64,000 bases of DNA from Candidatus Kerfeldbacteria bacterium (GTDB taxonomy: Bacteria > Patescibacteriota > Patescibacteriia > UBA10025 > JAHIVO01), in contig CP181398.1 in the NCBI GenBank assembly GCA_047946875.1, positions 143,154-207,153 on the forward strand. The letters run 5' to 3'. Position numbers and translations under genes: made by a program. This document shows positions 5,524-55,026 of this stretch, in pieces; position 1 is the stretch's first letter, and every line of letters begins with the position of its first letter. A model generated the notes under the pieces. The model had not been told where the DNA came from, did no database searches, and saw nothing but the letters and a program-made list of their open reading frames with translations.

Positions 5524-5598
5524 CTTGTCATCCTGAACTTGATTCAGGATCTCTAGAAAAGATTAGGGTGAGATTCCGGATCAAGCCCGGAATGACAG
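5524..5598. repeat. GC-rich nested-hairpin intergenic repeat, TTGTCAT-box family, copy A
   Basis: cTTGTCATcctgaacttgattcaggatc...attccggatcaagcccggaATGACAg. The outer stem TGTCAT/ATGACA encloses two hairpins, cctgaa/ttcagg and attccgg/ccggaat. Immediately 3' of grpE. Confidence 0.6.
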
Positions 5599-5633
5599 AA
5601 AATAATATATAATAATTTTAAAAGAATAATAAT

Positions 5634-6083
5634 ATGGCAATAATGAGATGGCGACCTTCAATGGATCCAATAGATTTAGAAAGATTTTTTGAAGAAATGC
5701 CAAGGATGCAAGCAAAAAATAATTCATATACACCAGCTGTAGATATCTACCAAGATAAGGATAATGTCGTTGTAGAGACACCATTGGCTGGGGTAGATCC
5801 TGAGAAAGTAAATGTATCAGTGGAAGATGATGTATTAAAAATAGAAGGTAAATCAGAACATAGATCAGAAGTAGATGAAGATAACTATTATAGAAAAGAA
5901 GTACGACATGGTAGCTTTTATAGGGCAATAGCTCTACCTACCAGTGTAATAGCTGATAAAGCAGAGGCTAACTTCGAAAATGGAATGCTTAAAGTAATAA
6001 TCCCAAAAGCTGGTGAAGTTAAACCAAAAACAATCAAAGTAAATATAATTAAAAAAGATAAATCTAAAAAAATTCAGGCATAG
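5634..6083 (+). CDS. Small heat shock protein, Hsp20/alpha-crystallin family
   Basis: Alpha-crystallin domain AVDIYQDKDNVVVETPLAGVDPEKVNVSVEDDVLKIEGK...GSFYRAIALP. Confidence 0.9.
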   Translation: MAIMRWRPSMDPIDLERFFEEMPRMQAKNNSYTPAVDIYQDKDNVVVETPLAGVDPEKVNVSVEDDVLKIEGKSEHRSEVDEDNYYRKEVRHGSFYRAIALPTSVIADKAEANFENGMLKVIIPKAGEVKPKTIKVNIIKKDKSKKIQA

Positions 6084-6119
6084 CCTGATCCGGCTTTGCC
6101 GGAAATTAACAATATATAT

Positions 6120-6509
6120 ATGAAAATAATTGGAGGAAATAATATTCCACCACCAGGAGGTTCGCAAGGACCGCCAGGATCAGGGGGGAGATCAGGAAAA
6201 CCAGAACAGATAAAGATAGATGCCAAATGTACTATCTGTGGTAGTCTATATGACTTCGGTAAATTGGAAGTAATACAGGAAGAAGAAGGCGCAACATTGA
6301 TGTATATCAAATGTTCTGTCTGCCAAAGCGCCGCTCTATCGATAGTGGCTATTGGATCATTCGGGATCAAAGTATCGAGTGTAATCACAGATCTGGAAAA
6401 AGATGAAGTTATGCATTTTCAAGAAGAGAGATCAGTACAGAGTGAAGATGTTTTAGCTCTACATGAGGAGTTAGAAATTACAGATAATTTTTTAGAAGAG
6501 ATTAATTAA
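6120..6509 (+). CDS. Zinc-ribbon protein with a Gly/Pro-rich N-terminus, inserted in the heat-shock operon
   Basis: The ATG at 6120 follows GGAGG-poor AT-rich spacing. The track ORF starts at a TTG at 6096. Contains CTICGS...CSVCQS (CxxC-x23-CxxC) and an acidic C-terminus. Lies between hsp20 and dnaK. Confidence 0.6.
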   Translation: MKIIGGNNIPPPGGSQGPPGSGGRSGKPEQIKIDAKCTICGSLYDFGKLEVIQEEEGATLMYIKCSVCQSAALSIVAIGSFGIKVSSVITDLEKDEVMHFQEERSVQSEDVLALHEELEITDNFLEEIN

Positions 6510-6556
6510 AATATAATATAAATAAAATAATTTTATAAAAGAAAGGAATAAACAAA

Positions 6557-8533
6557 ATGAGTAAAATACTCGGAATTGACTTAGGTACTACTAACTCAGC
6601 TATGGCAATAATTGAGGGCGGAGAACCAAAAGTATTAGAAAATAAGGAGGGCAACAGAACTACACCGTCAGTGGTAGCTATTACCAAGACAGGAGAGCGT
6701 GTTGTTGGGCAGATTGCCAAAAGACAAGCAGTAACTAATCCAGAGAATACAATCTATTCTGTGAAAAGGTTGATTGGTCGTCATTGGAATGATGATGAAG
6801 TACAGCATGATGTAAAAACAATGCCTTACAAAATCGTTCAAGCAGGAGAAGGTCTTAAAGTGGCTATGAACGGTAAAGATCAAACTCCTCAGGAAGTTTC
6901 AGCAATGATTCTACAGAAGCTTAAGGCTGATGCAGAAGCTAAGTTGGGCGAGAAGATAGAAGAGGCAGTTATTACTGTGCCAGCTTATTTTGATGATGCA
7001 CAGCGCCAAGCTACCAAAGATGCTGGTGAGATTGCAGGTCTGAAAGTAAAACGTATTATCAATGAGCCAACCGCAGCTGCTCTAGCTTATGGTTTTGATA
7101 AGAAAAAAGATCAGCAAATTGCTGTTTATGATCTTGGTGGTGGTACTTTTGATATCTCTATCTTAGACGTAACCGCCGATACTGTTGAGGTTAAATCTAC
7201 CAATGGTGACACTCATCTTGGTGGTGATGATTTTGATAAGAAAATTATTGACTGGATGATAGATGAATTCAAGAAAGATCAAGGAATTGATTTATCCAAC
7301 GACAATATGGCTTTACAGAGGTTGAAAGAAGCAGCTGAGAAAGCCAAAGTAGAACTATCAACTGCTACAGACACAGAAATCAACTTACCATTCGTCACAA
7401 CTGACGATACTGGCCCTAAGCATATGGTTATGAAGATGACTCGTGCACAATTAGAAGAACTAGTTAGTGAACTTATCGAGCAAACTATGGAGCCAGTTAA
7501 GAAAGCATTGGAAGATGCTAAATTAAAAGCTTCAGACATCGAAGAAGTTATCATGGTCGGTGGTATGACTCGTATGCCAAAAGTATTGGAGACTGTAGAG
7601 AAATTCTTCGGCAAGAAACCTCACATCGGTGTTAATCCTGATGAGGTTGTAGCCTTGGGTGCAGCTGTACAAGCTGGTGTTATGCAAGGTGAAGTTAAAG
7701 ACGTCTTGTTATTAGACATTACTCCATTGACTCTAGGTATCGAGACATTAGGTAGTGTTTCTACTCCATTGATCGAGAAGAATACAACTATCCCTACTTC
7801 CAAATCTCAAATTTTCTCAACTGCTGCAGATAATCAAACATCCGTAGAAATCCACGTATTACAAGGTGAGAGATCTATGGCTGGTGATAACAAAACATTA
7901 GGTAGATTTATCTTAGCTGGTATTCCACCATCTCCTAGAGGTGTGCCACAAGTAGAGGTATCTTTCGATATCGATGCTAATGGTATCTTGAATGTGAAAG
8001 CCGTGGACAAAGCTTCTGGTAAAGAACAATCCATCACTATCACTGCTTCATCTGGTCTATCTAAAGATGAAGTAGAGAAGATGAAACAAGATGCCAAAGC
8101 TCATGAAGCAGAGGATGCTAAAAAGAAAGAAGGAGTTGAGACAAAAAACCAAGCAGAATCATTAGTCTTCACCGCAGAGAAGTCATTGAAAGATGCAGGT
8201 GATAAGGTTAAAGATGAAGTGAAAAAAGAAGTAAATGAAAAGATCGAAGCCCTTAAGAAGTTGAAAGATAGCGATGATTTATCAGCTATTAAGAAAGCTA
8301 CTGAGGAATTATCCGTAGCTATGCAACAGATTGGTGCTGCCATGAATGAGGCTCAGCAAAAGGCTGACGCTGCAAAGCCTAAGGAAGGTGATAAAAAAGA
8401 TCCTGAAACAAGTTCAGGAGGTAATGGTAAAGATAAAGGACCAGTAGATGCAGAGTTTGAAGATGTGAAGAAAGATGGAGAAAAGAAAGAGGATGATAAA
8501 AAGGAAGAAGAGAAAAAAGATGATAAAAAGTAA
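6557..8533 (+). CDS. dnaK: Chaperone DnaK (Hsp70)
   Basis: [17 protein letters not shown] and VGGMTRMP signatures. Lys/Glu-rich C-terminal tail. RBS AAAGGAA upstream. Confidence 0.97.
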
Positions 8534-8545
8534 TTAGTTTAAATA

Positions 8546-8577
8546 GCGCGGGGCATTTGCCCCGCGTGATTTGTATA
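8546..8577 (+). terminator. Intrinsic terminator after dnaK
   Basis: GCGCGGGGC-attt-GCCCCGCG hairpin followed by a T-rich tract. Confidence 0.7.
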
Positions 8578-8613
8578 TACGTTGAGTTTAAAAAAATATT
8601 ATGGAATTAATGT

Positions 8614-9516
8614 ATGGAAAAAAATGAAAATTTAATATCAAAAAATATTGTAGTTATTATTGTATTTGTATTTGGGATTTTTATGCTTGGCGCGCTGGTA
8701 TACGATGCCTTTACTTCAAAAACATTAAGCGCAAGAGAAAGTACACTTATTTCAATTTTTAGTTCTTTTTTAATTGCACAAGGTTTTTACATTTTTGGTA
8801 AAACATCATCACGTATAGAAGCAATGGAAGGTTTTAAAGGGGAAACACAGAAAGCTTATCGTCGTTCAGAAATTATTAAAAAGAGTTCTGAAACCATACA
8901 GGCAATGTTGAGTTCACGAATGGGTGTATATAAAGCAAAAAAAGAATTGAATAATTCTGATCGAGACGCAATTCTAGAGATTTTTAGAAGTGGAATATTA
9001 CAAATGGACAGCTTAATTGATCATTTAAATGCTTCAATGAAGGATTGGGCAGACATTATTCCTGAATTTGTGGACAAAAGAAAAGAAGTAAATAAAAAAA
9101 TTGCAGATATAAGAGATGAATTAAATAAACAAAGAATCACTTTTTTAGAGGAAGTTGATAAAGTTAAAAAAGCAACTGAAAAGAGTGATGGGGAAAAGAA
9201 AAATGAGATTGATATATTAAAAACAAAAATAGGTGCACTTGAATCTGAAAAGTATTCAGAAATTAAACAGATAGATCCTCTGGATTCATTAGTATCCTCA
9301 CCAAGCGGAATGGGAGTTGTCTATAGTAATGCAGATAATGTTAGAATATTAAATTCAAATGAAGGTATTTTACCGAGAAGTTTTGTAGATGATTCTTTAA
9401 TTTCATCAGAAAATATGTTTCAATCTCGTGTCCCAGATTTAACAAAAGTTGAACCAAATGTAATTACTGGCATTCAAGTAAAAAAAGTTAAAAGCAAAGA
9501 AGAAACAAAGAAATAA
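8614..9516 (+). CDS. Hypothetical membrane protein with a coiled-coil region
   Basis: 300-aa ORF with one N-terminal TM and a long Lys/Glu-rich helical region. Confidence 0.6.
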   Translation: MEKNENLISKNIVVIIVFVFGIFMLGALVYDAFTSKTLSARESTLISIFSSFLIAQGFYIFGKTSSRIEAMEGFKGETQKAYRRSEIIKKSSETIQAMLSSRMGVYKAKKELNNSDRDAILEIFRSGILQMDSLIDHLNASMKDWADIIPEFVDKRKEVNKKIADIRDELNKQRITFLEEVDKVKKATEKSDGEKKNEIDILKTKIGALESEKYSEIKQIDPLDSLVSSPSGMGVVYSNADNVRILNSNEGILPRSFVDDSLISSENMFQSRVPDLTKVEPNVITGIQVKKVKSKEETKK

Positions 9517-9575
9517 TAATGAATTATCAAAGAATTAACCAAACCCTAGGAGCAGGCCTCTGTGCCTGCGACGCC

Positions 9576-9612
9576 ATAAAAAAACTGAGCGCACCCAGGG
9601 ACGGATGCGCTC
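9576..9612 (-). terminator. Rho-independent terminator on the minus strand (repeat copy 1 of 2)
   Basis: Minus-strand RNA GAGCGCA-uccgucccuggg-UGCGCUC followed by U7. The 29-nt core gcgcacccagggacggatgcgctcggagg recurs identically at 11161-11189. Confidence 0.6.
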
Positions 9613-9631
9613 GGAGGTTAATTACATACTT

Positions 9632-9771
9632 TTGTCACTTCGAACCTGCCTGCTCGCCTCGCTAAAGCTCGGACGAAGCGGGCCGGTAGGCAGGCGAAGA
9701 GAGAAGTCCTTATAACGATATTAGCATTTACTAACCTGATAAAGATCTCTCCGCTTCGGTCGAGATGACAA
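9632..9771. repeat. Long GC-rich structured intergenic element (extended member of the TTGTCA-box family / candidate sRNA)
   Basis: TTGTCAc at 9632 and ATGACAA at 9765 bracket a long imperfect hairpin: cttcg/cgaag, cctgcct/aggcagg, cgcttcg/cgaggcg. GC content is far above that of the flanks. The 73-aa minus-strand ORF track entry here is probably not coding. Confidence 0.45.
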
Positions 9772-9839
9772 ACGTTAGTTAAATTAAAATCTATAAGAAG
9801 TGTGGCTAAATTAAATTTTAATAATAGGAGAACGATCAA

Positions 9840-10241
9840 ATGGCAAATAAAAAAATTAACCCAGTTTCCTTAAGGATACCAACAAAAGCCTATAGTCAAG
9901 GAGTTCTTGTTCCTTGCGGACAAAGTAATTTACTTTTTATTACTGGGCAGTTACCTCAAGATATTGATGGTAAAATTATCCACCAAGATGATGTAGGGGA
10001 GCAAGTTAGGCTTGTTTTTTCAAGGATTTCTGATATTTTGAAAGAAGCAGAGATGTCTTTCGATGATGTTGTGAAGCTCCAGATTTATGTGAGTGATATA
10101 GGTTCTGCAAAGACTGTATCCTCTATTAGAGATGAACTCTTTGGAGTTAGTAAACCCGCAAGCACACTTGTAGAAGTGTCAGGCTTTGTAAAAGAAGGTT
10201 GCAACGTTGAAATTGATGCCGTTGCAGCGAAGCTTGTTTAA
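9840..10241 (+). CDS. ridA: RidA/YjgF family reactive-intermediate deaminase
   Basis: GQLPQD...VRLVFSRISDILKEAEMSFDDVVKLQIYVSD...VEVSGFVKEGCNVEIDAVA matches the RidA/L-PSP fold. Confidence 0.85.
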   Translation: MANKKINPVSLRIPTKAYSQGVLVPCGQSNLLFITGQLPQDIDGKIIHQDDVGEQVRLVFSRISDILKEAEMSFDDVVKLQIYVSDIGSAKTVSSIRDELFGVSKPASTLVEVSGFVKEGCNVEIDAVAAKLV

Positions 10242-10274
10242 CTAACTTCTTTAGATTCGTTAGGAGGCTTACTC

Positions 10275-10342
10275 TTGTCATTGCGAGCAAAGCGAAGCAA
10301 TCTCATGAGATCACTTCGTCATTTTATTCCTCGTGATGACAA
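10275..10342. repeat. GC-rich nested-hairpin intergenic repeat, TTGTCAT-box family, copy B
   Basis: TTGTCATtgcgagcaaagcgaagcaatc...cgtgATGACAA immediately 3' of ridA. Same outer stem as copies A, C and D. Confidence 0.55.
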
Positions 10343-10359
10343 ATTAGAAAATAATATCT

Positions 10360-10815
10360 ATGAATTACCAAAGAATAATACAACAAATAGTTGAGCAGGC
10401 GAGAGAGTTGAAAGATATTAGCACAACAGAGAATAAAGCACGTGTGAACTATGCTTGTATTTTTTCGCAATCTAAGAAGGAATATAAGGAGTTAGAAACA
10501 GACGTGGCGCAATACGGTAAGCTAATAAAAGAAACAAAGATGGGGAATGTGTATTTAGTAGAGCCGATACAGACATGGTCTGGATTAGTAAAGATAGTAA
10601 AAATAAGAAAACCAGATCCTGAGCGACCTGAGCGGGGAGACGCTGATTTCACAGTAAGGGATTATAAGGTGTTTAAAAAAGAATATTTAGATAAGCCTGG
10701 GTTTAGTTTGATAGAACGTCCTGATATGGAAATGATAGAATTAGCTGATCCAAATTTTAATGTCTTGGCTTATTTCTCTAACCCAACACTTGGAGAGGTA
10801 TTGGGTATTAATTAA
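10360..10815 (+). CDS. Hypothetical protein
   Basis: 151-aa ORF with no recognisable motif. Confidence 0.55.
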   Translation: MNYQRIIQQIVEQARELKDISTTENKARVNYACIFSQSKKEYKELETDVAQYGKLIKETKMGNVYLVEPIQTWSGLVKIVKIRKPDPERPERGDADFTVRDYKVFKKEYLDKPGFSLIERPDMEMIELADPNFNVLAYFSNPTLGEVLGIN

Positions 10816-10852
10816 AAAAGGACCCAATAGTTGAATCCTTTACGTTAAATAT

Positions 10853-11071
10853 TTAGGCATAGTAGCACACAGTTGCCATCAGACTTATTCCGCAACAAAT
10901 TAGAGTGGCATTTCGATAGTACTTGCGAGTTCCTAGATCAATTGCCCAACGATGAAATTCATCGCAGATGCACAAGAAATAACAAATTGAGCTTACAAAA
11001 AGTACGGCAAGTCCTCCAAAAATGATAAGCGCCCATGCGGCTTCCCAAGCAGAATTGTATTCCACTATCAT
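10853..11071 (-). CDS. Small hypothetical membrane protein (72 aa, two predicted TM, Cys-rich)
   Basis: Sequence MIVEYNSAWEAAWALIIFGGLAVLFVSSICYFLCICDEF...LICCGISLMATVCYYA. Preceded on its own strand by a structured GC-rich leader plus terminator hairpin. Confidence 0.5.
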   Translation of the reverse strand: MIVEYNSAWEAAWALIIFGGLAVLFVSSICYFLCICDEFHRWAIDLGTRKYYRNATLICCGISLMATVCYYA

Positions 11072-11149
11072 AATATACCCCTTTATTAAATAGCAATTTT
11101 ATTATATTAAGTTTAGCTAGATAGGGTTGTTTTGTCAAAAAAAACCTGT

Positions 11150-11183
11150 AAAAAAAGTAGCGCACCCAGGGACGGATGCGCTC
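11150..11183 (-). terminator. Rho-independent terminator on the minus strand (repeat copy 2), in the 5' leader of the 10853..11071 gene
   Basis: Minus-strand GAGCGCA-uccgucccuggg-UGCGCU followed by U7, with the core identical to 9584-9612. Its position between a structured element and the downstream ORF suggests an attenuator. Confidence 0.55.
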
Positions 11184-11194
11184 GGAGGATTTCA

Positions 11195-11280
11195 TAACCA
11201 TAGAGAGCACACTTTCCGCCCATCTTCGCCTTTGACGAAACTAATGGCGGGCAGGTCTAGTGTGCGAACGAAATAGTATT
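11195..11280. repeat. GC-rich nested-hairpin structured element (outer stem GCACACT/AGTGTGC)
   Basis: gaGCACACTttccgcccatcttcgcctttgacgaaactaatggcgggcaggtctAGTGTGCg. Nested CCGCC/GGCGG and ttcg/cgaa stems. Contains the GGCGGGCAGG box. Confidence 0.5.
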
Positions 11281-11284
11281 TATA

Positions 11285-11359
11285 TTGACATGGATGTCTA
11301 TTCATGATATTTTGGTATATAAATAAAAACATAAATTGAACTTAAAAAAAGGATAAAAA
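11285..11359 (+). promoter_or_regulatory. Promoter/5'UTR module P1 (75-bp repeat copy 1)
   Basis: TTGACA, then a 17-bp spacer, then TG-n-TATTTT, then a conserved AT-rich leader ending in an RBS GGA. About 90% identical to 11609..11686. Confidence 0.6.
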
Positions 11360-11515
11360 ATGGCAGTAGATGATAAAAATACCGAATGTCCTCATTGTAA
11401 TGGACGTACAACCTGTACTTGCTCAAGTTGCGGAGCTTATGTCACTGGCAGGGGTGGAAAGGAATGGAAAAAGGGTATTTGCAAGGTTTGTGGTGGCTCT
11501 GGTAAAGCCAGATAA
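11360..11515 (+). CDS. Unannotated 51-aa Cys-rich miniprotein with DnaJ-type zinc-finger motifs
   Basis: Too short for the ORF track (under 60 aa). Sequence MAVDDKNTECPHCNGRTTCTCSSCGAYVTGRGGKEWKKGICKVCGGSGKAR, i.e. CxxCxG...CxxCxG...CxxCGGSG. Driven by promoter module P1 and followed by a terminator. Confidence 0.6.
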   Translation: MAVDDKNTECPHCNGRTTCTCSSCGAYVTGRGGKEWKKGICKVCGGSGKAR

Positions 11516-11551
11516 TCCTGGTAAGTAGTTTCAAAAGCTATGATAGTAACT

Positions 11552-11584
11552 CCGTTGATTAATTTTAACGGGGTTTCATTTTTT
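11552..11584 (+). terminator. Intrinsic terminator after the miniprotein gene
   Basis: CCGTT-gattaatttt-AACGG hairpin followed by gTTTCATTTTTT. Confidence 0.5.
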
Positions 11585-11608
11585 GTAAAACAAAAAATTA
11601 CAAAAGGA

Positions 11609-11686
11609 TTGACATAGACGTTTATCTATGATATTTTGGTATATAAATAAAAACATAAATTGTACGTAAAAAAAAGGAGAAAAACG
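11609..11686 (+). promoter_or_regulatory. Promoter/5'UTR module P2 (75-bp repeat copy 2)
   Basis: TTGACAtagacgtttatctatgatattttggtatataaataaaaacataaattgtacgtaaaaaaaaGGAGaaaaacgATG, a near-duplicate of P1. Confidence 0.6.
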
Positions 11687-12034
11687 ATGTCAGATATGTC
11701 TTGTATGGTACCACGTGAAAAGGTTGCATTAAGAATTACAACAGGTAATGATAATGATCAAACCGTTTATGTATTCGGTCCCCCAGACAAAAATGAATTT
11801 AGAAAGGTTCAACGAAATGACGAAAAACCTTTCACAGCTAAGATAATGGGACCAGTTGTAGATGAGATTTTGGTTGATGATGTGGTAGTGGGCATATACA
11901 CACAATTAGCTAATAAGCAGGTCCTAGCGCATAAAAAAATGCTTGAAGTGGGCACTCCAATGGGACTTTGGACTGAACCTGATGCCAAAGAAACTCGAAT
12001 TTCAAGACCTATTATCAAGATAGAGATTATTTAA
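11687..12034 (+). CDS. Hypothetical protein (116 aa)
   Basis: Start ATG at 11687, 7 nt after a GGAG RBS. The track ORF extends to 11660. Sequence MSDMSCMVPREKVALRITTGNDNDQTVYVFGPP... Confidence 0.6.
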   Translation: MSDMSCMVPREKVALRITTGNDNDQTVYVFGPPDKNEFRKVQRNDEKPFTAKIMGPVVDEILVDDVVVGIYTQLANKQVLAHKKMLEVGTPMGLWTEPDAKETRISRPIIKIEII

Positions 12035-12049
12035 ATCTTTTATCTAAAA

Positions 12050-12077
12050 CCTCCAATTTTTACTGGAGGTTTTTTTA
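12050..12077 (+). terminator. Intrinsic terminator
   Basis: CCTCCA-atttttac-TGGAGG hairpin followed by T7. Confidence 0.75.
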
Positions 12078-12102
12078 TATTTGAAAATAAGTATGTATAA
12101 AT
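12054..12102. repeat. Direct repeat DR-a (about 48 bp) flanking the metallopeptidase gene
   Basis: caatttttactggaggtttttttatatttgaaaataagtatgtataaa matches 14142..14190 (caaatttttactggaggtttttttatatgttataataagtatatatgaa). Confidence 0.6.
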
Positions 12103-12167
12103 TCTCTTGGTAATAAAAAAACACTTTAGAAAAACTAAAGTGTTTTTTATTGAAAAGTTTTTATAAT

Positions 12168-14015
12168 TTACTCCGCTATTTGAAGTAGGTCAGCGGTGGT
12201 AAATTTCTGCGATCCGCCGGTGTCTTTGTTAGTGATGGTGAGCGTGACATCTTCTTTTGTTCCGTCTGATGTTATCAGCTGCATGGTGTCAGTATCTAAG
12301 GAGTTATCACCGAGTGGGATTTTGACATGAATTTTATCTAAAGTAACTACCTTTGATGTGCCAAATGAAACGGTTGCCTCAGAGTCAATGTCAATATCGC
12401 CACCTACTAATGTTGAATCTTCTCTGGTATCTTTAAATAGAATTGTCGTGGTGGCAAACTCTGTCGTCGATGAGTATTCTTTACCGCTGATAGATATTGT
12501 GTATGTAGTATCAACTAATGATGTGTCAGTTGGTATTGTTCCTATTTGCTGTTTAATGCTTTCTATACTATAAGCTTCAGCTTTATTTTCTACTATAATA
12601 TCGATATATGAAGTTTGTTCACCGCGTGCACTGGAATACGGAGCAAGGCGATTTGTAATTTGTCGCTCATTCACAAGACCATAGCGGAAGTCTAGATTAT
12701 AGCCGCCACACATGACTGACGAATATGTCCCTTTGATATTATTTGATACATACGAACATCCATTAAAGTACCCAACATCTAACGCTTCTTTTACTTGGCC
12801 TTCAAGATCACCCCACCATAATTCCGCTACAACTACAGAACTTGCGCAGTTTGGAAAACCTGGACTATTGGATCCACTAGAGTCAATTCTTTCATCTCTG
12901 AGTAGGAAAGCTTGGTGGCCAAATTCATGATGGAAAACATGGCGAATACCGCGCACGGCCCCTTGTTCCATCTCAAGAAAATCAGTAGTCGCTATATATG
13001 AATCTCGATTGTAATGCGCATAACCGACAACCCCGTCGGGGAAGGTAGTGTTACATAGGAAAACAGGATAAACGATGCCATTACTGATACCACTCTTTTC
13101 AATCGCCCAATTGTAATGGTCAGCTCCAAATTCGCAACTTGTTAGGAGTTGCTCATTGAGGTACCAAAAATTATATTTATCTAAATTATCTTTAAGTACT
13201 TCCATTTCAGCGAATGGCTTTACCTCAGTTAGCCAGTTATATTCCGGATGGCCCGCTCCATAATATGTTAAGTTAAATGGTTCAACATTATACTGATCAT
13301 TTAAGTCGATTAACACTTTACTTTTGATTATTACCTCATTTATCGATGGCTGATCTGATCCGATAAATACGACATTTACACGATTTGCATTCTTATCATT
13401 ATGATTACTATACAACTCTTTTAATATAGGTATGCATGTACAACCATTACACTGCTCATCAAGTCCGCATCCACCATTATAATCGCATTCTTCCCCTAGT
13501 TCTGGTTGAATTTGCCCATCTCCACATGAATATTTACACGCACCATCATCACAGTACCAATAATTTCCATACCGCACCGAACAATCCGCTTCTGTAGAGC
13601 TAAATTCAGGCCCTAAAAGGGCTTCGGTTTCTTCATTAGCCTCTGTATCAATACTAGCACCACGGATGACAGGGGTATTGATTTCTGGGCTATTTGGGCA
13701 ATAATAATCAACTACATGATCGCTAGTTTCGCAGTTATCAGTGTATTTATTAATCTTTCCATAGCCATTATCAATTGTCACCCATCCATGCCTTTTAAAG
13801 GCATCTTTTCCGTCTGAATCACGGCATATTGGTGTACCACTTAAAATAGGATCAGTTTCTGAGTCCGGTCCAATTATTAATCCATACACAAGTCCACCTC
13901 CGGCGATAACGGCCGCGAGTATCATCGTAGTGAGCGCAATCATGACTGGTGTCTGGATTTTTGTTGAAGTGATTTGTTGGATTTGTTTGTTCATAGGTTT
14001 TTTCTTAGGAGGCAT
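12168..14015 (-). CDS. Membrane-anchored secreted zinc metallopeptidase (HExxH), Cys-rich
   Basis: N-terminal TM (IALTTMILAAVIAGGGLVYGLII). HEFGH motif (VFHHEFGHQAFLLRDE) with downstream Glu candidates, i.e. gluzincin-like. Many Cys pairs (CGDGQ...CDYNGGCG...CNGCTC). Confidence 0.75.
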   Translation of the reverse strand: MPPKKKPMNKQIQQITSTKIQTPVMIALTTMILAAVIAGGGLVYGLIIGPDSETDPILSGTPICRDSDGKDAFKRHGWVTIDNGYGKINKYTDNCETSDHVVDYYCPNSPEINTPVIRGASIDTEANEETEALLGPEFSSTEADCSVRYGNYWYCDDGACKYSCGDGQIQPELGEECDYNGGCGLDEQCNGCTCIPILKELYSNHNDKNANRVNVVFIGSDQPSINEVIIKSKVLIDLNDQYNVEPFNLTYYGAGHPEYNWLTEVKPFAEMEVLKDNLDKYNFWYLNEQLLTSCEFGADHYNWAIEKSGISNGIVYPVFLCNTTFPDGVVGYAHYNRDSYIATTDFLEMEQGAVRGIRHVFHHEFGHQAFLLRDERIDSSGSNSPGFPNCASSVVVAELWWGDLEGQVKEALDVGYFNGCSYVSNNIKGTYSSVMCGGYNLDFRYGLVNERQITNRLAPYSSARGEQTSYIDIIVENKAEAYSIESIKQQIGTIPTDTSLVDTTYTISISGKEYSSTTEFATTTILFKDTREDSTLVGGDIDIDSEATVSFGTSKVVTLDKIHVKIPLGDNSLDTDTMQLITSDGTKEDVTLTITNKDTGGSQKFTTADLLQIAE

Positions 14016-14141
14016 ATTGCTATAATTTAATATAATATTTTATCACTTCATTATTATACGCTAATATTACGTTAAAATCAAAAAACCCAAATTTAAAGGC
14101 TTATCAAAAAGATATAGATTATTTAGAGAATTATTAAATCT

Positions 14142-14190
14142 CAAATTTTTACTGGAGGTTTTTTTATATGTTATAATAAGTATATATGAA
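14142..14190. repeat. Direct repeat DR-b (partner of 12054..12102)
   Basis: See DR-a. Copy b lacks the left arm of the terminator hairpin and includes the ATG of the downstream HD gene. Confidence 0.6.
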
Positions 14191-31292: not shown

Positions 31293-31394
31293 AATAATGC
31301 GGGATCGACTACCTTCGCATATATGCTACGGCAGGCAGGTCTAATGGTAGGGTTATAGTTGTTAAATTTATTCTAAACTATAGTTCTAAATATT

Positions 31395-31465
31395 ATTAAT
31401 TCAATGCGGGATCGTCTAATGGTAGGACAGCGGCCTCTGAAGCCGCTAATCCTGGTTCGAGTCCA
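31395..31465 (+). tRNA. tRNA-Gln (anticodon CUG)
   Basis: Acceptor stem TGCGGGA/TCCCGCA, D-arm TCTAATGGTAGGA, anticodon stem-loop GCGGC-CUCUGAA-GCCGC with anticodon CUG, T-arm CCTGGTTCGAGTCCAGG, and discriminator G. CCA is not encoded. Confidence 0.85.
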
Positions 31466-31738
31466 GGTCCCGCAGAATTTAAACAGTTAAAATATCATAA
31501 AATAAAAATATAATTAGGGCACTTGCCCTACTAATAATTGGGAGGTCCAGGCTTGCCTGCCGATAGGCAGGTCCCGCAATTTAATCAATAAAAAAAGTCC
31601 TTTAGTATTAAAGAACTTGGATTTTTTTATTTGATTGTTATACTTTTGGATAGCACTATTAGCTATTTTAAAAGCATTATGATAGGGTGTATTTGTAAAG
31701 AGTAATATAGTTACTCTTGTTTTTTTACTATAAATGTT

Positions 31739-39943: not shown

Positions 39944-40078
39944 TTATATTATTTTTTGTACTTTCTGAGAAAATCTCAGCCTGCCCGCCTCTGGCGGGAC
40001 CCCAAAAGCATAAACTATCTAATAGGGTAATAATTATTAGAATAAAAACGATATGTTGATTTATGATATAATGTATAT

Positions 40079-46475: not shown

Positions 46476-46476
46476 T

Positions 46477-47118: not shown

Positions 47119-47121
47119 TTA

Positions 47122-47184
47122 CTTGTCATGCTGAACTTGTTTCAGTATCTTTATAGACCCTGAAATAAATTCAGGGTGACAAGA
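47122..47184. repeat. GC-rich nested-hairpin intergenic repeat, TTGTCAT-box family, copy C
   Basis: CTTGTCAtgctgaacttgtttcagtatc...accctgaaataaattcagggTGACAAG. Immediately 3' of truB. Confidence 0.6.
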
Positions 47185-47319
47185 GAGAGTATATTTGATT
47201 CTTGGATTCCAGCCTTTAGGCTGTTACATATAAAACCCTAAAGCCTGCCTGCCGGCAGGGGTTAATTCTTTGTTATTATAATAGATGACAGAGGGGGGTG
47301 AATAATATATAATGTAGCT

Positions 47320-49279: not shown

Positions 49280-50344
49280 ATGATGAAAATCGCTGATTTT
49301 CCAGTAGGACTTACGTTCGATGACGTTCTATTAGAACCACGCTTTTCTGATGTTGTGAGAAGTGAGGTAGATCTGAGTGCCCAGGTTACAAAAAAAATAA
49401 AGATTAAAATTCCCATTATAGCTGCCGCTATGGATACGGTCAGTGAATCAGCCATGGGGATTGTTTTAGGTAAATTGGGAGGTCTAGCAGTATTGCACAG
49501 AAACAACACGATCGATGAAGCAGTAACTATGGCCAAGAAAGTTAAAAGTAAAAGTTTAATTACTTCTGTTTCAGTTGGTCCGCATGATTTAGAAAGGGCA
49601 GTAGCATTGGATAAGGCTGGTGTAGATATTATTGTTGTAGATTGTGCTCATGCACATAACAAAAAAATCATTGCTAGTGCCAAGAAAATAAAGAAAAGTA
49701 TTAAAGCTCAATTGATGGTAGGTAATCTAGCAACAGCTGAAGCGGCAGAGCAATTCGTCGGTTTCGTTGATGCTATCAAAGTAGGTATCGGACCAGGCTC
49801 TATTTGTACAACTAGAGTTGTAGCTGGGATTGGCGTACCACAGTTATCAGCAATACTTGATGTAGTACGAGTAGCTAAGAAAAAGAATGTGCCAGTAGTA
49901 GCCGATGGAGGATTAAAATATTCTGGAGATGTAGTAAAAGCTTTAGCAGCAGGGGCATCTACGGTTATGCTTGGATCAATGTTGGCAGGTACTAAAGAAT
50001 CACCAGGAAAAGTTATTAAAATAAACGGTCAAACTGTAAAAGTATATAGAGGGATGGGAAGTCTAGGAGCAATGAAAAAAGGTCAGTCTACTGATAGGTA
50101 TTTTCAAAAAGGTAATAAAAAGTATGTCCCTGAGGGAGTAGAGGGAGTAATAAAATATAAAGGTACAGTAGAAGAAGTAATATGGAATCTTGTAGGTGGA
50201 TTAAAAAGTGGGATGGGGTATATCGGAGCGAAGAATATTGAGCAGATGAATAAAAAAGCTAAATTTATACGTATTACCAATGCAAGCCTAAAAGAATCAC
50301 ATCCACATACAATTACTATAAATAAAAAAGCACCAAATTATTAA
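49280..50344 (+). CDS. IMP dehydrogenase / GMP reductase family protein lacking CBS domains
   Basis: LTFDDVLLEP N-terminus and the catalytic loop GIGPGSICTTR. 354 aa is the GuaC-like length. Confidence 0.8.
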   Translation: MMKIADFPVGLTFDDVLLEPRFSDVVRSEVDLSAQVTKKIKIKIPIIAAAMDTVSESAMGIVLGKLGGLAVLHRNNTIDEAVTMAKKVKSKSLITSVSVGPHDLERAVALDKAGVDIIVVDCAHAHNKKIIASAKKIKKSIKAQLMVGNLATAEAAEQFVGFVDAIKVGIGPGSICTTRVVAGIGVPQLSAILDVVRVAKKKNVPVVADGGLKYSGDVVKALAAGASTVMLGSMLAGTKESPGKVIKINGQTVKVYRGMGSLGAMKKGQSTDRYFQKGNKKYVPEGVEGVIKYKGTVEEVIWNLVGGLKSGMGYIGAKNIEQMNKKAKFIRITNASLKESHPHTITINKKAPNY

Positions 50345-50352
50345 ATAAATAT

Positions 50353-51342
50353 ATGCCAAGAGAACATAATACACATAGAGCAGAATTACACGCCCATTTA
50401 GGGTCGTCTGTAGCACCATCTATTCTTTGGTCTATTGCACACCAACATGGTATCAAACTACCTAGTAAGGATTATTGGCATTTTGAAGATATGATTACGA
50501 TGACTGGTAACGAGAGAAATAAATCTCTGGATGATATGCATAATAATTTGTTTTACTGGACTGAGTTGATACAGTCGTCGCCTAATGCAATTGAAGATTC
50601 GGTACGTAGTGTTATCGGTGGAGGATATAGGAAATGTAATTTAACTATTCAAGAACTTAGGTTTAATCCAATGTTTAGAAATAGAGGTGGTGAGAAAGAT
50701 CTTGATCATATTATAGTATCTTCTTTGTGGGGATTAGACAGAGCAATGTTAGAATTCCCACAAGTACGAGCTGGAATTATACTAATGATGGATAGAACAC
50801 TTACTTATGAACAAAACTCTATAATTGTAAAAAAAGCTGTTAGATATAAAGATAGTGGAATTATTGGGATTGATTTGGCTGGTCCTCAGAGAAAATCTTT
50901 TTCAATAAAAAAACACGCTCAATTATTTAGGCAAGCTAAAGCTGCGGGTATGGGAACTACTATTCATACAGGTGAACAGGGAAGTTTGTCAGAGATGAGG
51001 TATGTGGTTAACGAAATCAAGCCTGACAGAATAGGTCATGGCCTACTTTGTGTTAAGGATAAAAAAATAATGGATAGTATTGTAAAACAAGATATAGTTT
51101 TGGAGTCATGTCCTACCTCAAATATTAAAAATAGTGTTGTTAAGAATGCGGCTGAATTAAAAAAGATTTTTCATGCTTATCTAAAAAATAAAGTTAAGTT
51201 TACAATCAATACTGATGGACCAGAGATGTATGATTCAAATATTTGTCAGGAGCAGGATTTCCTAGTGAAGAAAAAAATACTTACACCTGCTGACGTAAGA
51301 CAATGTAATAAGTGGGCTTTCGAAAGTACTTTTATCCAATAA
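50353..51342 (+). CDS. add: Adenosine/adenine deaminase family protein
   Basis: ELHAHLGSS metal-binding motif and the C-terminal INTDGPE (xNTDDP-like). Confidence 0.75.
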   Translation: MPREHNTHRAELHAHLGSSVAPSILWSIAHQHGIKLPSKDYWHFEDMITMTGNERNKSLDDMHNNLFYWTELIQSSPNAIEDSVRSVIGGGYRKCNLTIQELRFNPMFRNRGGEKDLDHIIVSSLWGLDRAMLEFPQVRAGIILMMDRTLTYEQNSIIVKKAVRYKDSGIIGIDLAGPQRKSFSIKKHAQLFRQAKAAGMGTTIHTGEQGSLSEMRYVVNEIKPDRIGHGLLCVKDKKIMDSIVKQDIVLESCPTSNIKNSVVKNAAELKKIFHAYLKNKVKFTINTDGPEMYDSNICQEQDFLVKKKILTPADVRQCNKWAFESTFIQ

Positions 51343-51354
51343 CAATATATTAAT

Positions 51355-52884
51355 ATGAGGGATGTAATTTTTGTTCTTGATTTTGGTTCTCAATATTCAC
51401 ATTTGATAGTTAGACGAATTCGTGAGATGGGTATTTTTGCTGAATTAATGCCCTATAATACGAAGCTTGAAGTTCTAAAAAAAGCAAAAGGAATAGTATT
51501 GTCTGGTGGTCCTCAAAATATTTCTGGTAATTCAGCATTAAAAGTAGATAGAGGCATCTTTAATTTGAATGTTCCAATTTTGGGTATTTGTTTTGGATTG
51601 CAATTGATATCACATCAGCTTGGAGGCAAGATAGAAAGATCTAGTAAGAAAGAATATGGACCTACGGTAATAAATATTACAACATCAGGGAAATTATTTG
51701 CTGGTATATCAAAAAAACAAATGACTTGGATGTCTCATGGCGATAAGGTTAGTAAATTACCGGCTGGGTTTAGGGCTTTAGCCAGTTCAGATAATTGTAA
51801 ATATGTAGCTATCTCAAATGAAAAGAAAAACATATTTGGTTTGCAGTTTCATCCAGAGGTTTCTCATACTAAAAATGGTAAAAAAATACTAGGTAATTTT
51901 ATAAAATTAACTAAGGCAAAAAAAACTTGGTCAATGAAAGATTTTATTGATAATAAAATAACAGAGATTAAAGACCAGATTGGAAAAGATAAGGTTGTTT
52001 GCGCCTTGTCAGGCGGAGTTGATTCATCAGTGGCATCTACTTTAGTAAATAAAGCGATCGGTAAACAGTTGTATTGTATATATGTAGATACAGGTATGAT
52101 GAGACAAAGGGAGACAGAACAAATTATAAAGACGTTTAGATCTTACCAAAAAATTAATCTTAAAGTGATCAAGGCTGAGAAGTTATTCCTAAGTAAGTTA
52201 AAAGGTATAATTGACCCAGAAAAGAAAAGAAAAATTATTGGAGAAATATTTATTCGTATTTTTGAAAAAGAAGCTAAAAAGATAGGTAAAGTAAAATGGT
52301 TGGTGCAAGGGACTTTATATACAGATGCTATTACTTCTGGAGTTAGTGTAGGTAAAAAAGCGGCCGTGATTAAATCTCATCATAATGTCGGAGGATTGCC
52401 GAAGAAATTTGGATTTACTTTGATAGAACCTTTTCGTTGGTTATATAAAGACGAGGTAAGAGAAGTTGGTAAATTATTGGGTTTACCTGATTCTGTAGTT
52501 CATAGACAACCATTCCCTGGTCCAGGTTTAGCTGTCAGAATAATAGGAGATATTACCAAAGAGAAATTGGAAATTTTAAGAAAAGCAGATTGGATAGCAA
52601 GGGAGGAAATAGAGGCAAGTGGCTGGCACAAGAGGTCACAACAGTATTTTGCAGTATTACCAACTATTAAGTCGGTTGGAGTTCAGGGTGATGCCAGGAC
52701 TTATGGTTATCCCATTATAATTCGCGCTGTTTCAACTATAGATTTTATGACAGTAGATTGGACACCATTCCCACATTCATTATTAAAAAAAATATCAGTC
52801 AGGATTACAAACGAAGTTAAAGAAGTAAATAGAGTGTTGTATGATATCACTTCTAAACCCCCAGGTACTGTTGAATGGGAATAG
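51355..52884 (+). CDS. guaA: GMP synthase (glutamine-hydrolysing)
   Basis: GATase (GICFGLQ), PP-loop SGGVDSSV, and the C-terminal dimerisation domain ending in PPGTVEWE. Confidence 0.95.
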   Translation: MRDVIFVLDFGSQYSHLIVRRIREMGIFAELMPYNTKLEVLKKAKGIVLSGGPQNISGNSALKVDRGIFNLNVPILGICFGLQLISHQLGGKIERSSKKEYGPTVINITTSGKLFAGISKKQMTWMSHGDKVSKLPAGFRALASSDNCKYVAISNEKKNIFGLQFHPEVSHTKNGKKILGNFIKLTKAKKTWSMKDFIDNKITEIKDQIGKDKVVCALSGGVDSSVASTLVNKAIGKQLYCIYVDTGMMRQRETEQIIKTFRSYQKINLKVIKAEKLFLSKLKGIIDPEKKRKIIGEIFIRIFEKEAKKIGKVKWLVQGTLYTDAITSGVSVGKKAAVIKSHHNVGGLPKKFGFTLIEPFRWLYKDEVREVGKLLGLPDSVVHRQPFPGPGLAVRIIGDITKEKLEILRKADWIAREEIEASGWHKRSQQYFAVLPTIKSVGVQGDARTYGYPIIIRAVSTIDFMTVDWTPFPHSLLKKISVRITNEVKEVNRVLYDITSKPPGTVEWE

Positions 52885-52952
52885 CATATTAGTTGACTTT
52901 GCATTATTGATAATGTTAGGCTATATTAAGATAATAATTAATATATAAAAAT

Positions 52953-53306
52953 ATGCCAGGTGAATTAAGAGAAATAAGAGAAAGTGTAGAAAAGGCTGAA
53001 AAGCCTAAGAAAGAAATTGAAATGATGGCAGATTCCGCAAAAAATGATTTGTGGGTAGAAGTAAGCCAAGGAGAAGTAAGTTCTGCTTCGATATTGGATG
53101 GGAAGGATGGATTCACTGATGAGAGCAGAGAAGTAATGAATGCACAGATTATGCAAATCAGAGAATTGTTTAACCAAGCTGTAGAAAAACTCGGTGATGG
53201 TGAAGGAGAATCGGAAGATGTTGGTGACGGTCTATTAAAAGGATTAGAAAGAGGTTATGTAGAAATGCTAGAAAAAAAGATATCTGATTTAGAATTAGTA
53301 CTATAA
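52953..53306 (+). CDS. Hypothetical acidic protein
   Basis: 117-aa Glu-rich ORF. Confidence 0.5.
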   Translation: MPGELREIRESVEKAEKPKKEIEMMADSAKNDLWVEVSQGEVSSASILDGKDGFTDESREVMNAQIMQIRELFNQAVEKLGDGEGESEDVGDGLLKGLERGYVEMLEKKISDLELVL

Positions 53307-53324
53307 ATACATGTTAATAAAAAA

Positions 53325-53348
53325 GGCGGTTATATTACCGTCTTTTTT
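53325..53348 (+). terminator. Intrinsic terminator
   Basis: GGCGGT-tatatt-ACCGTC hairpin followed by T6. Confidence 0.6.
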
Positions 53349-53518
53349 GATTGACTTAAAATATAATATTTGGTAAAGTTTGTTTGGACAATAATCTAAT
53401 AAACATAAAAAGAGCAAATTAAAAATTATGTAAACCTTGACTTAGGAGGCAAGGATTTTTTTGCATGAAAATATATTTGTTGAAAATAAGAAATTTAAAC
53501 TCTAAATAGAGGTACTAA

Positions 53519-54826
53519 GTGGTGGAAAATAGAAACAATGCTGTATTAGGTTGCCAATGGGGCGATGAAGGTAAAGGCAAAGTTGTTGATCTTCTTTGTG
53601 ATGACGCTGATATAGTTGCTCGATTCCAAGGCGGTAACAATGCAGGACATACCATCGTGTTTGAAGGGAAAAAATATGTTCTTCATCTTGTCCCATCCGG
53701 GATATTCCGTCCAAATACTATTTGCGTAATAGGAAATGGTCCGGTGCTCGATCCATTCGCGTTTGTAGAAGAACTTGATAATTTGAAAAAATGGGAAGTA
53801 GATTATGAAGGCCGGATATTCATATCTGGAGCTACGAATCTAATCTTACCATATCATAAGATTATTGATGGTCTTCGTGAAAAGAGTCGTGGCGCTGGTT
53901 CTATCGGTACCACTAAACGAGGTATCGGTCCAGCATATGGCGATAAGACATTCCGTAGTCCAGTTATAAGTATAGCTGATCTAGTTGATTCACGAGATGG
54001 TTACAGCCGTCTTAAGGATTTGTTGGAAGTTAACCGCCTAGCTAAGGCACATTTACTTGATGGCCTTCCTGAAGAAGATCAGATTGACTGGGATGAGTTA
54101 TTCAAATCCTTAGTGGCTATGGCAGATATATTCCGTCCAATGATGGCGGATATTTCATTGCTTATAACCGAAGCTTACAAAGCTGGCAAGAAGATTGTCT
54201 TCGAAGGTGCTCAAGGAGCAATGTTGGATGTAGATCTTGGTACAAGGCCTTATGTAACTTCATCGCATGTTATTACAGGCGGTATTTGTACTGGATTGGG
54301 TATTGGTCCCAGGTTGATCGGTGCAGTAACTGGAATAATTAAAGCATACACTACTCGTGTAGGTGCAGGACCTTTCCCAACAGAACTTTTCGATGAGACA
54401 GGTGCCTATCTTTATAAAAAAGGTGAAGAAATTGGAGCTTCTACTGGACGAGACAGACGTTGTGGTTGGTTGGATTTAGTTTTATTGAAGCATACTTGTC
54501 GGATCAACGGTGTTGATGATTTTGCTCTTACCAAGATAGATGTGCTGGACGGCCTTGAAGAAATTAAGGTCTGTGTGGCTTATATGCTTGATGGTATAAA
54601 AATCACTGAAATGCCAGTTGATATGGGTAGACTTGGTGACTGTATACCAGTCTATGAGACTATCCCTGGTTGGGAAGGTGAGACAAGAGGAGTTACTTCT
54701 TATGAAGATCTTCCTGAAGGAGCAAAAAGTTATATCAAATACATTATTGATGCGCTTGGTATAAATCCGTCTCTCATTTCCACAGGTCCTGATCGGGAAG
54801 AAACTATTATTCTCGAAAATCACTAA
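53519..54826 (+). CDS. purA: Adenylosuccinate synthetase
   Basis: GCQWGDEGKGKVVD P-loop, GGNNAGHT, TTKRGIGPAY. A GTG start is inferred. Confidence 0.95.
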   Translation: MVENRNNAVLGCQWGDEGKGKVVDLLCDDADIVARFQGGNNAGHTIVFEGKKYVLHLVPSGIFRPNTICVIGNGPVLDPFAFVEELDNLKKWEVDYEGRIFISGATNLILPYHKIIDGLREKSRGAGSIGTTKRGIGPAYGDKTFRSPVISIADLVDSRDGYSRLKDLLEVNRLAKAHLLDGLPEEDQIDWDELFKSLVAMADIFRPMMADISLLITEAYKAGKKIVFEGAQGAMLDVDLGTRPYVTSSHVITGGICTGLGIGPRLIGAVTGIIKAYTTRVGAGPFPTELFDETGAYLYKKGEEIGASTGRDRRCGWLDLVLLKHTCRINGVDDFALTKIDVLDGLEEIKVCVAYMLDGIKITEMPVDMGRLGDCIPVYETIPGWEGETRGVTSYEDLPEGAKSYIKYIIDALGINPSLISTGPDREETIILENH

Positions 54827-54843
54827 GTAATATTTATTACAAA

Positions 54844-54871
54844 CCTCGGTTGTTACAATCGGGGTTTTTTA
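54844..54871 (+). terminator. Intrinsic terminator after purA
   Basis: CGGTTGT/ACAATCG stem followed by GGGG and T6. Confidence 0.6.
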
Positions 54872-54946
54872 TTATTTTAATTTTGTTTTGATCACTTCTC
54901 GTTACTCGCCTTGCCTGTCGGTAGGAAGGAATGATAGCAAAAAAAT

Positions 54947-55026
54947 ATTGTCATCCTGAACAAAGTGAAGGATCTAATTATAACAAATCAAGGTTAAAGA
55001 TTCTTCGCTACACTCAGAATGACAAG
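54947..55026. repeat. GC-rich nested-hairpin intergenic repeat, TTGTCAT-box family, copy D
   Basis: TTGTCATcctgaacaaagtgaaggatc...ctcagaATGACAAg, located between the convergent purA and GIY-YIG genes. Confidence 0.55.

Follow-up and report, generated by a model that had tools for sequence, protein, structure and literature searches.

Dispersed palindromes of a Kerfeldbacteria genome are very probably head-to-head dimers of TGTC-tagged REP-type repeats with an SsnA-like nuclease encoded alongside

A 64,000-nt stretch of a Candidatus Kerfeldbacteria genome (contig CP181398.1, positions 143,154 to 207,153; the whole stretch is called the window) carries five palindromic islands dispersed among its genes. 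What kind of element are they, and do they work as RNA or as DNA? The initial annotation of the window had described them as a dispersed, REP-like (repetitive extragenic palindrome) family of structured palindromes. This description is borne out, but the annotation left the family unnamed and missed the nuclease gene beside the last copy. Both are supplied here. With high confidence, we identify the islands as head-to-head dimers of TGTC-tagged REP-type repeats, which belong to the CGTC-tagged REPs, or Ssn-related motifs (SRM), and a candidate partner enzyme of the SsnA type is encoded alongside.

All five islands were found within 1–2 nt of the positions first given for them (Table 1), and no sixth is present in the 64 kb. 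The pattern TTGTCAY-N30-60-RTGACA gave five matches at three loci (both strands), compared with 0.29 expected, and none of 100 shuffles reached five. A covariance model of the single arm, run with the filters off, recovered 9 of the 10 window arms (E-values from 1e-9 to 0.2). The same model, scanned over the whole 64 kb with filters off, found no element beyond the five. The arm at 9633-9710 was missed by the model; its loop contains a nested hairpin, and a pattern search located it.

The two internal hairpins that had been noted in each island are confirmed, and they are two oriented arms. One arm is on each strand, the tags point outward, and the stems of the two almost always differ. Read on its own strand, the module consists of a TGTC tag, an 8-bp stem with A-T as its first pair and T-A or C-G as its second, a loop that is either about 5 nt long, often CTTGA, or expanded, and a C-initial tail, usually CTC. 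What had been recorded as TTGTCAT comprises the tag and the two bases that open the stem.

A GrpE profile yielded 80 Patescibacteria loci; with three further loci found by the exact protein and the window itself, the set comprised 84 loci (1.37 Mb). For the analysis of covariation, 45 arms were picked by sequence anchors alone (TGTCAY-N17-RTCY), with control anchors giving 2–12 hits. Spacing histograms with short weak anchors were too noisy, and stronger anchors were used instead. In the 8-bp helix of these 45 arms, 82% of the cells are paired compared with 67% in shuffles, and 70 cells show double changes compared with 23.7 ± 4.6. The covariation score is 0.484 (0.217 in shuffles). None of 500 shuffles reached the observed values, and slid registers pair only to 18–45%. 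The arm hairpin is under selection.

The covariance model identified 104 arms in the 83 other loci, and anatomy was counted over 108 arms from the 84 loci. The tag is TGTC in 88, CGTC in 7, and CCTC in 7 of them. In a tag-agnostic search for hairpins with 8-bp stems and 5-nt loops, the sequences met most often on the 5' side were likewise TGTC (22) and CCTC (6). The first stem pair is A-T in 105 of the 108 arms; the second is T-A in 96 and C-G in 12. Loops have 5 nt in 57 arms (4–5 nt in 59), 6–7 nt in 17, and 9–55 nt in 32, where they hold nested hairpins. The tail begins with C in 105 arms and reads CTC in 65, CCC in 15, and CCA in only 4.

About half of the 108 arms are of a second type, with tandem G.A/A.G pairs at stem positions 6–7, a short GC stem, and a GNA loop, as in ATCCT-GA-GC-GAA-GC-GA-AGGAT. 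By nearest-neighbour rules, such a hairpin is stable on the tag-sense strand only, as its complement carries C.T/T.C mismatches. This one-sided stability fits a strand-specific recognition of single-stranded DNA.

The ends TTGTCAT...ATGACAA, which the initial annotation had described as able to pair in an outer stem, find no support as a selected helix. In 29 of 36 head-to-head dimers the tag is TGTC on both sides, and these are uninformative. Six of the seven dimers with a variant tag are uncompensated across the element (CCTC/TGTC, CGTC/TGTC, AGTC/TGTC, and others, for example CCTC...GACA in locus L014), and one pair is CCTC/CCTC. The ends of an element are complementary because the same tagged module sits there twice in inverted orientation. 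Whole elements also fold in silico as one long imperfect hairpin; since 34 of the 36 dimers are heterodimers, however, the conserved feature is two local hairpins and not one long hairpin. Depending on the count, 33–36 dimers are head-to-head and none is tail-to-tail, and most seeming singletons have a degenerate partner. Certain arm combinations recur across genomes, namely ATCCTGAA with ATTCCGGR, ACCCTGAA with ATGCCGAA, and ATTCTGAG with ATCCTGAG, which suggests that the dimer rather than the arm is the persisting unit.

This anatomy has been described before. Di Nocera, De Gregorio & Rocco (2013; PMC3733652) defined CGTC-tagged REPs by an unpaired 4-nt tag (CGTC or the variants TGTC and CCTC), an 8–9-bp stem whose first two pairs are complementary A/T, a loop of 4–5 nt, and a 3-nt tail with the consensus CCA. 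Head-to-head dimers predominate and are often heterodimers, tail-to-tail dimers are rare, the repeats lie downstream of open reading frames (ORFs), and no linked transposase was found (PMC3733652). Neisseria dRS3 corresponds to CGTC-1, and Rickettsia RPE-4 and RPE-6 correspond to CGTC-4 and CGTC-1, respectively (PMC3733652). Chenal et al. (2025, Nat Commun 16:2388; PMC11893778) term the oriented dRS3 NTS (CGTCATTCCCGCGMAVGCGGGAATCYRG) and its relatives elsewhere SRM. Both are targeted by SsnA, a GIY-YIG protein of 94 aa with a single domain, whose CDD family is cd10448. As dRS3 is CGTC-1 in the one study (PMC3733652) and, as NTS, the SsnA target in the other (PMC11893778), CGTC-tagged REPs and SRM are the same family.

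SsnA binds the hairpin as single-stranded DNA only, not as duplex DNA, RNA, or the reverse strand, and its cut site lies a few nucleotides upstream of the motif (PMC11893778). The C after the palindrome matters most for binding and the three bases before it for cutting, whereas mutation of Y6, Y17, or E64 in the enzyme abolishes cleavage (PMC11893778). The positions that this Neisseria mutagenesis showed to be critical, the GTC that precedes the palindrome and the C that follows, are those conserved in our arms. SRM occur near 71% of ssnA homologues and on both sides of 42%; in N. meningitidis, the Ssn system restricts transforming single-stranded DNA, and an IS-like (insertion sequence) or domesticated origin has been discussed (PMC11893778).

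The arms described here share with CGTC-tagged REPs the tag, the 8–9-bp stem starting with A/T, the 3-nt tail, the head-to-head and mostly heterodimeric arrangement, and the position downstream of ORFs. A loop of 4–5 nt occurs in 59 of the 108 arms, and the CTTGA loop is common to arms of S. meliloti. They differ in the tail consensus (CTC instead of CCA), in about one third of arms with loops far over 5 nt due to nested GC hairpins, in about half of arms with purine-purine stem pairs, and in a phylum outside the five of the paper (PMC3733652). With the SRM/SsnA system they have in common an oriented, mostly extragenic hairpin repeat with HGTC before and C after the palindrome, a single-domain GIY-YIG gene of about 94 aa with the motif 2–3 nt past its stop codon, and, in some relatives, an arm-gene-arm order. 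Here the host is a metagenome-assembled genome of Patescibacteria/Kerfeldbacteria at 33% GC, and the A/T content of the stems is higher. Tandem G.A pairs and loops of GNA type or expanded length occur in half of the arms, and the tail is CTC instead of CYRG/CCA. The density is about one copy per 13 kb instead of hundreds in clusters.

Synthetic doublets searched against plasmids matched Calothrix, Aulosira, Planktothrix, Gloeothece, Methylosinus, Methylocystis, Novosphingobium, Halomonas, and Phocaeicola. Four of these matches (Calothrix, Methylosinus, Planktothrix, and Halomonas) were read directly and have the same anatomy; the Methylosinus copy is CGTC-tagged. Patescibacteria are not mentioned in the main text of either paper (PMC3733652, PMC11893778), and we found no follow-up work in the literature collection searched. 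The Kerfeldbacteria elements and their nuclease extend the described REP/Ssn family to the candidate phyla radiation (CPR), while the kind itself is already known.

The candidate partner gene is the ssnA-like gene downstream of purA, in convergent orientation (Table 1). The initial annotation had assigned the last element to the 3' end of purA. It does lie downstream of purA, but beyond the intrinsic terminator of that gene (54841-54867), and it really abuts the stop codon of the convergent gene 55029-55316 at 3 nt. The encoded protein is 49% identical over 88 residues to the 94-aa SsnA orthologue of N. gonorrhoeae (BLASTP, E 1e-27). In an alignment of the window protein with the Neisseria, Planktothrix, and five CPR homologues, the equivalents of Y6, Y17, and E64 are invariant. 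The exact window nuclease is recorded at one place only, on three assemblies of the same organism. A tblastn search with the window nuclease reaches the N. gonorrhoeae locus, in which an NTS begins 2 nt past the stop codon of the 94-aa gene and an inverted NTS lies about 120 nt upstream. The window gene has the dimer 3 nt past its stop codon and none upstream, with arm 54997-55024 in sense orientation on the coding strand. In both organisms, the motif begins 2–3 nt past the ssn stop codon and reads in sense on the coding strand.

A local iterative search identified 15 small GIY-YIG genes among the ORFs of the 84 loci, six of which form the window-like subfamily; in each of these six, an arm follows the stop codon at 0–22 nt. 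Under a single definition of the arm for all genes, 6 of 6 SsnA-like genes have an arm no more than 25 nt past the stop codon, compared with 29 of 1530 other genes (1.9%; Fisher p = 9e-11). When all GIY-YIG genes are taken together, the count is 6 of 15 (p = 4e-7). Covariance-model hits alone had given 3 of 5, as arms with long loops were missed; the association was hence redone uniformly. At locus L013 the ssn-like gene sits between a plus-strand and a minus-strand arm. The homologues of S. meliloti and N. aromaticivorans show the order arm(+)-gene-arm(-), with the CTTGA loop of the window arms, and in Spirosoma and Planktothrix, TGTC-tagged arms of the G.A type lie beside the ssn gene.

By homology with the characterized enzyme, the arm most likely acts as a hairpin of single-stranded DNA to which Ssn binds, cutting just upstream of it, and not as an RNA module. 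The arm would fold on its own sense strand when the DNA becomes single-stranded during replication, repair, or DNA uptake. Ssn would then bind the folded arm and nick that strand 5' of the tag, at a distance of a few nucleotides, as the enzymes of Neisseria and Wolbachia suggest, and would act on neither duplex DNA nor RNA. For a dimer with tags outward, this predicts one nick on each strand, immediately beyond the ends of the element. The role of such cutting could be a selfish spread similar to that of an IS or a MITE (miniature inverted-repeat transposable element), or a way for the host to control single-stranded DNA that is incoming or recombining, as in Neisseria.

The 71 elements that could be placed lie between co-directional genes (41), convergent genes (13), or divergent genes (7), inside crude ORF calls (6), or at locus edges (4). 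The upstream stop codon is no more than 20 nt away in 27 of 67 measured cases. In the window the distances are 8, 115, 33, 4, and 121 nt, and the earlier statement that the copies always follow a stop codon immediately does not hold. In sequence that is 86% coding, siting at gene 3' ends is best read as insertion where it is tolerated.

The elements are gained and lost between relatives, as the site downstream of grpE illustrates. Locus L003 (GrpE 86% identical) has a grpE-hsp20 spacer of 21 nt without an element, and L004 (84%) has a lone untagged hairpin. L006 and L008 (65%) carry nearly the same heterodimer as the window, and other subtypes follow grpE in at least seven further lineages.

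Several results weigh against the identification and the proposed mechanism. The published SRM pattern, HGTCWYN(0-2)YYVSBRHN(0-5)WNVSBRGN(0-2)RNCYNB, matched none of the 10 window arms. As controls, it gave seven matches in a 1.7-kb N. gonorrhoeae locus and six in the 83 CPR loci, of which only three coincide with independently found arms. The pattern is an operational search pattern and not a family definition, and the window arms fall outside it; hence the specificity here must differ from that of the tested enzymes. Sequence searches of NCBIfam and the PDB gave no family-level match for the window nuclease. Only one ssn gene was seen in the 64 kb, yet the arms have at least three stem types, so some copies may not be substrates of this enzyme. 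Neither a target-site duplication nor a clean pair of empty and filled alleles was found, so that patchy presence is the only indication of mobility. Finally, an element recurs downstream of grpE in at least 11 lineages with differing subtypes, which could reflect a locally selected function, possibly at the RNA level, rather than tolerance.

An action mainly in RNA, with the elements as 3'-end stabilisers, processing sites, or terminators without U-tract for the upstream genes (for example, in differential expression within hrcA-grpE-hsp20-dnaK), is the likeliest of the alternatives, though we consider it improbable. The elements fold well as RNA, with z-scores of -4.1 to -7.5, and in many lineages one follows grpE. 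In addition, 54 of the 61 intergenic elements lie between co-directional or convergent genes, with the close upstream stop codons counted above, and RNA roles of REPs have been argued from similar data (PMC3733652). Compared with the background of intergenic types, however, the elements are only modestly enriched. The grpE copy is wholly missing in the close relative L003, and the copy at 54948 lies beyond the intrinsic terminator of purA itself. Stem mismatches are balanced between G.T (15) and A.C (11) and show no wobble signature, although these events, counted relative to arm sense, are too few to inform on a function as RNA. As the arms are inverted, any transcript contains one arm in sense and one as complement, and for a G.A-type arm that complement makes only a weak hairpin. 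The characterized partner enzyme, SsnA, binds the motif as single-stranded DNA only and not as RNA (PMC11893778). The module for RNA 3'-end stability or termination proposed in the initial annotation receives no positive support; the remark there that these are not standard Rho-independent terminators was correct. None of the five elements appeared in terminator scans, whereas the same scans detect genuine terminators nearby (8546-8567 and 54841-54867). For an RNA role as a side effect, there is no specific support.

Two kinds of classical mobile repeat share parts of this architecture. REPINs mobilised by RAYT, a Y1 HUH tyrosine transposase of the IS200/IS605 type, likewise consist of tagged single-strand hairpins in inverted doublets, mostly heterodimers, with a nuclease gene that is present once and bordered by repeats of its own, and they persist in lineages over the long term. 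Their tag is GTAG instead of TGTC/CGTC/CCTC, and the fold and chemistry of the enzyme are unrelated. The gene linked to the repeats here encodes a GIY-YIG nuclease and not a Y1 transposase (the window was not fully scanned for Y1_Tnp genes), and no transposase was found linked to CGTC REPs (PMC3733652). Strand transfer or transposition is not known for Ssn. We regard REPINs as very improbable. Ordinary MITEs derived from an insertion sequence with a DDE transposase and TG...CA terminal inverted repeats would account for the patchy presence among relatives, and several DDE families have such termini, which the ends TGTCA...TGACA resemble. None of the five copies is flanked by a direct target-site duplication, and it is the GIY-YIG gene and not a DDE transposase that is linked to the repeats. 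The conserved unit, a single arm with an internally covarying hairpin that also occurs as a degenerate singleton, is unlike a DDE-MITE. Of all explanations weighed, this one has the least to recommend it.

Integron attC sites were rejected as well. They resemble the elements as imperfect palindromes of 57–141 bp at gene 3' ends that act as folded single strands. The element ends, YTTGTCA...TGACAAR, contain no AAC/GTT cores, however, and neither RYYYAAC/GTTRRRY core sites nor an integrase is present; the arms fold on themselves, unlike the one long bottom-strand hairpin of attC. Hammerhead-like cores and K-turns were ruled out on sequence grounds. The initial annotation had proposed a search of Rfam; a gathering scan of the whole window gave tRNA-Gln only, and an E-value scan of 9400-11400 gave nothing relevant. 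Full-text literature searches with sequence words of the elements returned only unrelated primer matches.

Returning to the SRM/SsnA identification, a bolder version of it can be put forward only tentatively, as it is more doubtful than not: in Patescibacteria, ssn and the arms may form a pair of autonomous and non-autonomous transposons. The arm-ssn-arm unit, as in L013, may be the parent, and the conserved heterodimers may be its MITEs, excised by Ssn through nicks on opposite strands, each just beyond an outward-facing tag. If true, the GIY-YIG enzyme Ssn would be the long-missing mobilising enzyme of CGTC-type REPs. A related reading, held with the same reserve, concerns the arms with G.A tandems and GNA loops. 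They are invisible to the SRM pattern yet lie beside ssn in Planktothrix and Spirosoma, and hence may represent a new and very widespread specificity class of single-strand nucleases.

The host range of Ssn now includes the candidate phyla radiation, with site-specific single-strand DNA nucleases and their hairpin targets. Many CPR organisms encode machinery for DNA uptake; hence the cutting of single-stranded DNA could matter to them. As a large divergent part of the family escapes the published pattern, the spread of Ssn and SRM is probably underestimated. Natural pairs of enzyme and site are candidates for new specificities in cutting single-stranded DNA, for example TGTCATTCTGAGTGTAGCGAAGAATC beside the 95-aa window enzyme.

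Table 1 Tagged repeats, SsnA-like gene, and CCTGCC/GGCAGG-type hairpins of the window
Feature	Position	Strand	Details
Dimer after grpE	5525..5598	.	Head-to-head; 16-nt spacer between arms
Left arm of grpE dimer	5526-5553	+	TGTC-ATCCTGAA-CTTGA-TTCAGGAT-CTC; 44.3 bits
Right arm of grpE dimer	5570-5597	-	TGTC-ATTCCGGG-CTTGA-TCCGGAAT-CTC; 38.1 bits
Long dimer upstream of ridA	9632..9771	.	Head-to-head
Left arm of long dimer	9633-9710	+	Loop holds nested GC hairpin at ~9646-9695, CCTGCCTGC...GCAGGCAGG; located by pattern
Right arm of long dimer	9742-9770	-	TGTC-ATCTC GACCGAAGCGGA GAGAT-CTT; 19.7 bits
Dimer after ridA	10275..10342	.	Head-to-head; 2-nt spacer; stems with tandem G.A pairs, GNA-type loops
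Left arm of dimer after ridA	10276-10304	+	ATTGC GAGCAAAGCGAA GCAAT; 16.0 bits
Right arm of dimer after ridA	10307-10341	-	13.9 bits
truB dimer	47123..47182	.	Head-to-head; 4 nt past truB stop; 2-nt spacer
Left arm of truB dimer	47124-47151	+	38.4 bits
Right arm of truB dimer	47154-47181	-	38.8 bits
Dimer between purA and ssn-like gene	54948..55025	.	Head-to-head; 3 nt from ssn-like stop, 121 nt past purA stop
Left arm of 54948-55025 dimer	54949-54976	+	34.3 bits
Right arm of 54948-55025 dimer	54997-55024	-	TGTC-ATTCTGAGTGTAGCGAAGAAT-CTT; 36.0 bits
ssnA-like gene	55029..55316	-	95-aa single-domain GIY-YIG nuclease; Pfam PF01541, E 1.8e-14
CCTGCC/GGCAGG-type hairpins	9646-9695, 11215-11250, 31330-31340, 31550-31572, 39978-40005, 47244-47259, 54903-54925

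Among the elements in Table 1, the description as GC-rich applies to three copies (42–51% GC) and fails for those at 47124 (36%) and 54949 (34%), which are near the window mean of 33.5%. The longer relative that had been reported at 9632-9771 is present. It owes its extra length to a separate CCTGCC...GGCAGG hairpin that occupies the loop of the left arm; in its homologue in L004 (13599-13705), the nested hairpin lies in the opposite arm. Such hairpins, CCTGCC(N)...GGCAGG, form a second family of small GC-rich hairpins that occur free in spacers as well as nested in the loops of TGTC-tagged arms. Nested copies are also found in L004, L015, L016, L027, L044, and L059.

A 73-aa ORF on the minus strand (9618-9839) lies almost wholly over the long element and is very likely spurious. 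Translated TGTC-tagged repeats probably account for many of the spurious short ORFs annotated as hypothetical proteins. An arm-like hairpin with tail but without TGTC tag (T CCTGAAC TTG TTTCAGG A TCTT) is present on the minus strand at 8401-8419 within dnaK, where the sequence codes for the low-complexity C-terminal tail (DPETSSGG). It may be the relic of an intragenic arm or may have arisen by chance.

The Planktothrix agardhii plasmid NZ_LR882964.1 (13955-19816; L088/L091) encodes an ssn homologue that shares 63% identity with the window protein. The gene and its TGTC-tagged repeats are situated between a restriction-modification gene of the MmeI type and drmA of DISARM, and the annotated MmeI ORF contains one dimer as well as partial arms in tandem. 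Two other subfamilies of small GIY-YIG genes have no tagged repeats: one is located beside tRNA genes (L082, L085, L038, L074, and L030), and the third is YhbQ-like (L018, L021, and L032). In a high-GC member of the Kerfeldbacteria (L063, 19090-19600), another palindromic repeat, GTTCTCGACGC-GC hairpin-TTGCTCGAACA, borders a more distant Ssn-like gene on either side and may be another cognate motif.

In the window, ridA is bracketed by two dimers. It belongs to a 5.6-kb stretch from dnaK to an HD_4 gene (8534-14185), together with a 300-aa ORF and several ORFs without Pfam match. The stretch contains two near-identical copies of a promoter plus leader (~11285-11340 and ~11609-11660) and is missing from the close relatives L003 and L004, in which the site is taken by a tagged dimer (L004) or by short ORFs. 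Two copies of a terminator-like repeat, GAGCGCATCCGTCCCTGGGTGCGCTC followed by a T-tract, are present on the minus strand between dnaK and the HD-domain gene (9585-9612 and 11159-11182).

Upstream of hrcA, an inverted repeat of the CIRCE type (TTAGCACTC-N9-GAGTGCTAA, 4243-4269) is overlapped by a near-consensus promoter; it is expected to be the HrcA operator of the hrcA-grpE-hsp20-dnaK cluster. An intact tRNA-Gln (CTG) at 31405-31475 lies between what appear to be the two halves of another tRNA-Gln-like gene, with the 5' part upstream at 31299-31345 (TGCGGGATCG...GTCTAATGGTAGG) and the 3' part downstream at 31534-31586 (GGTCCAGG...AGGTCCCGCA). Each half is broken by a short GC hairpin of the CCTGCC/GGCAGG type.

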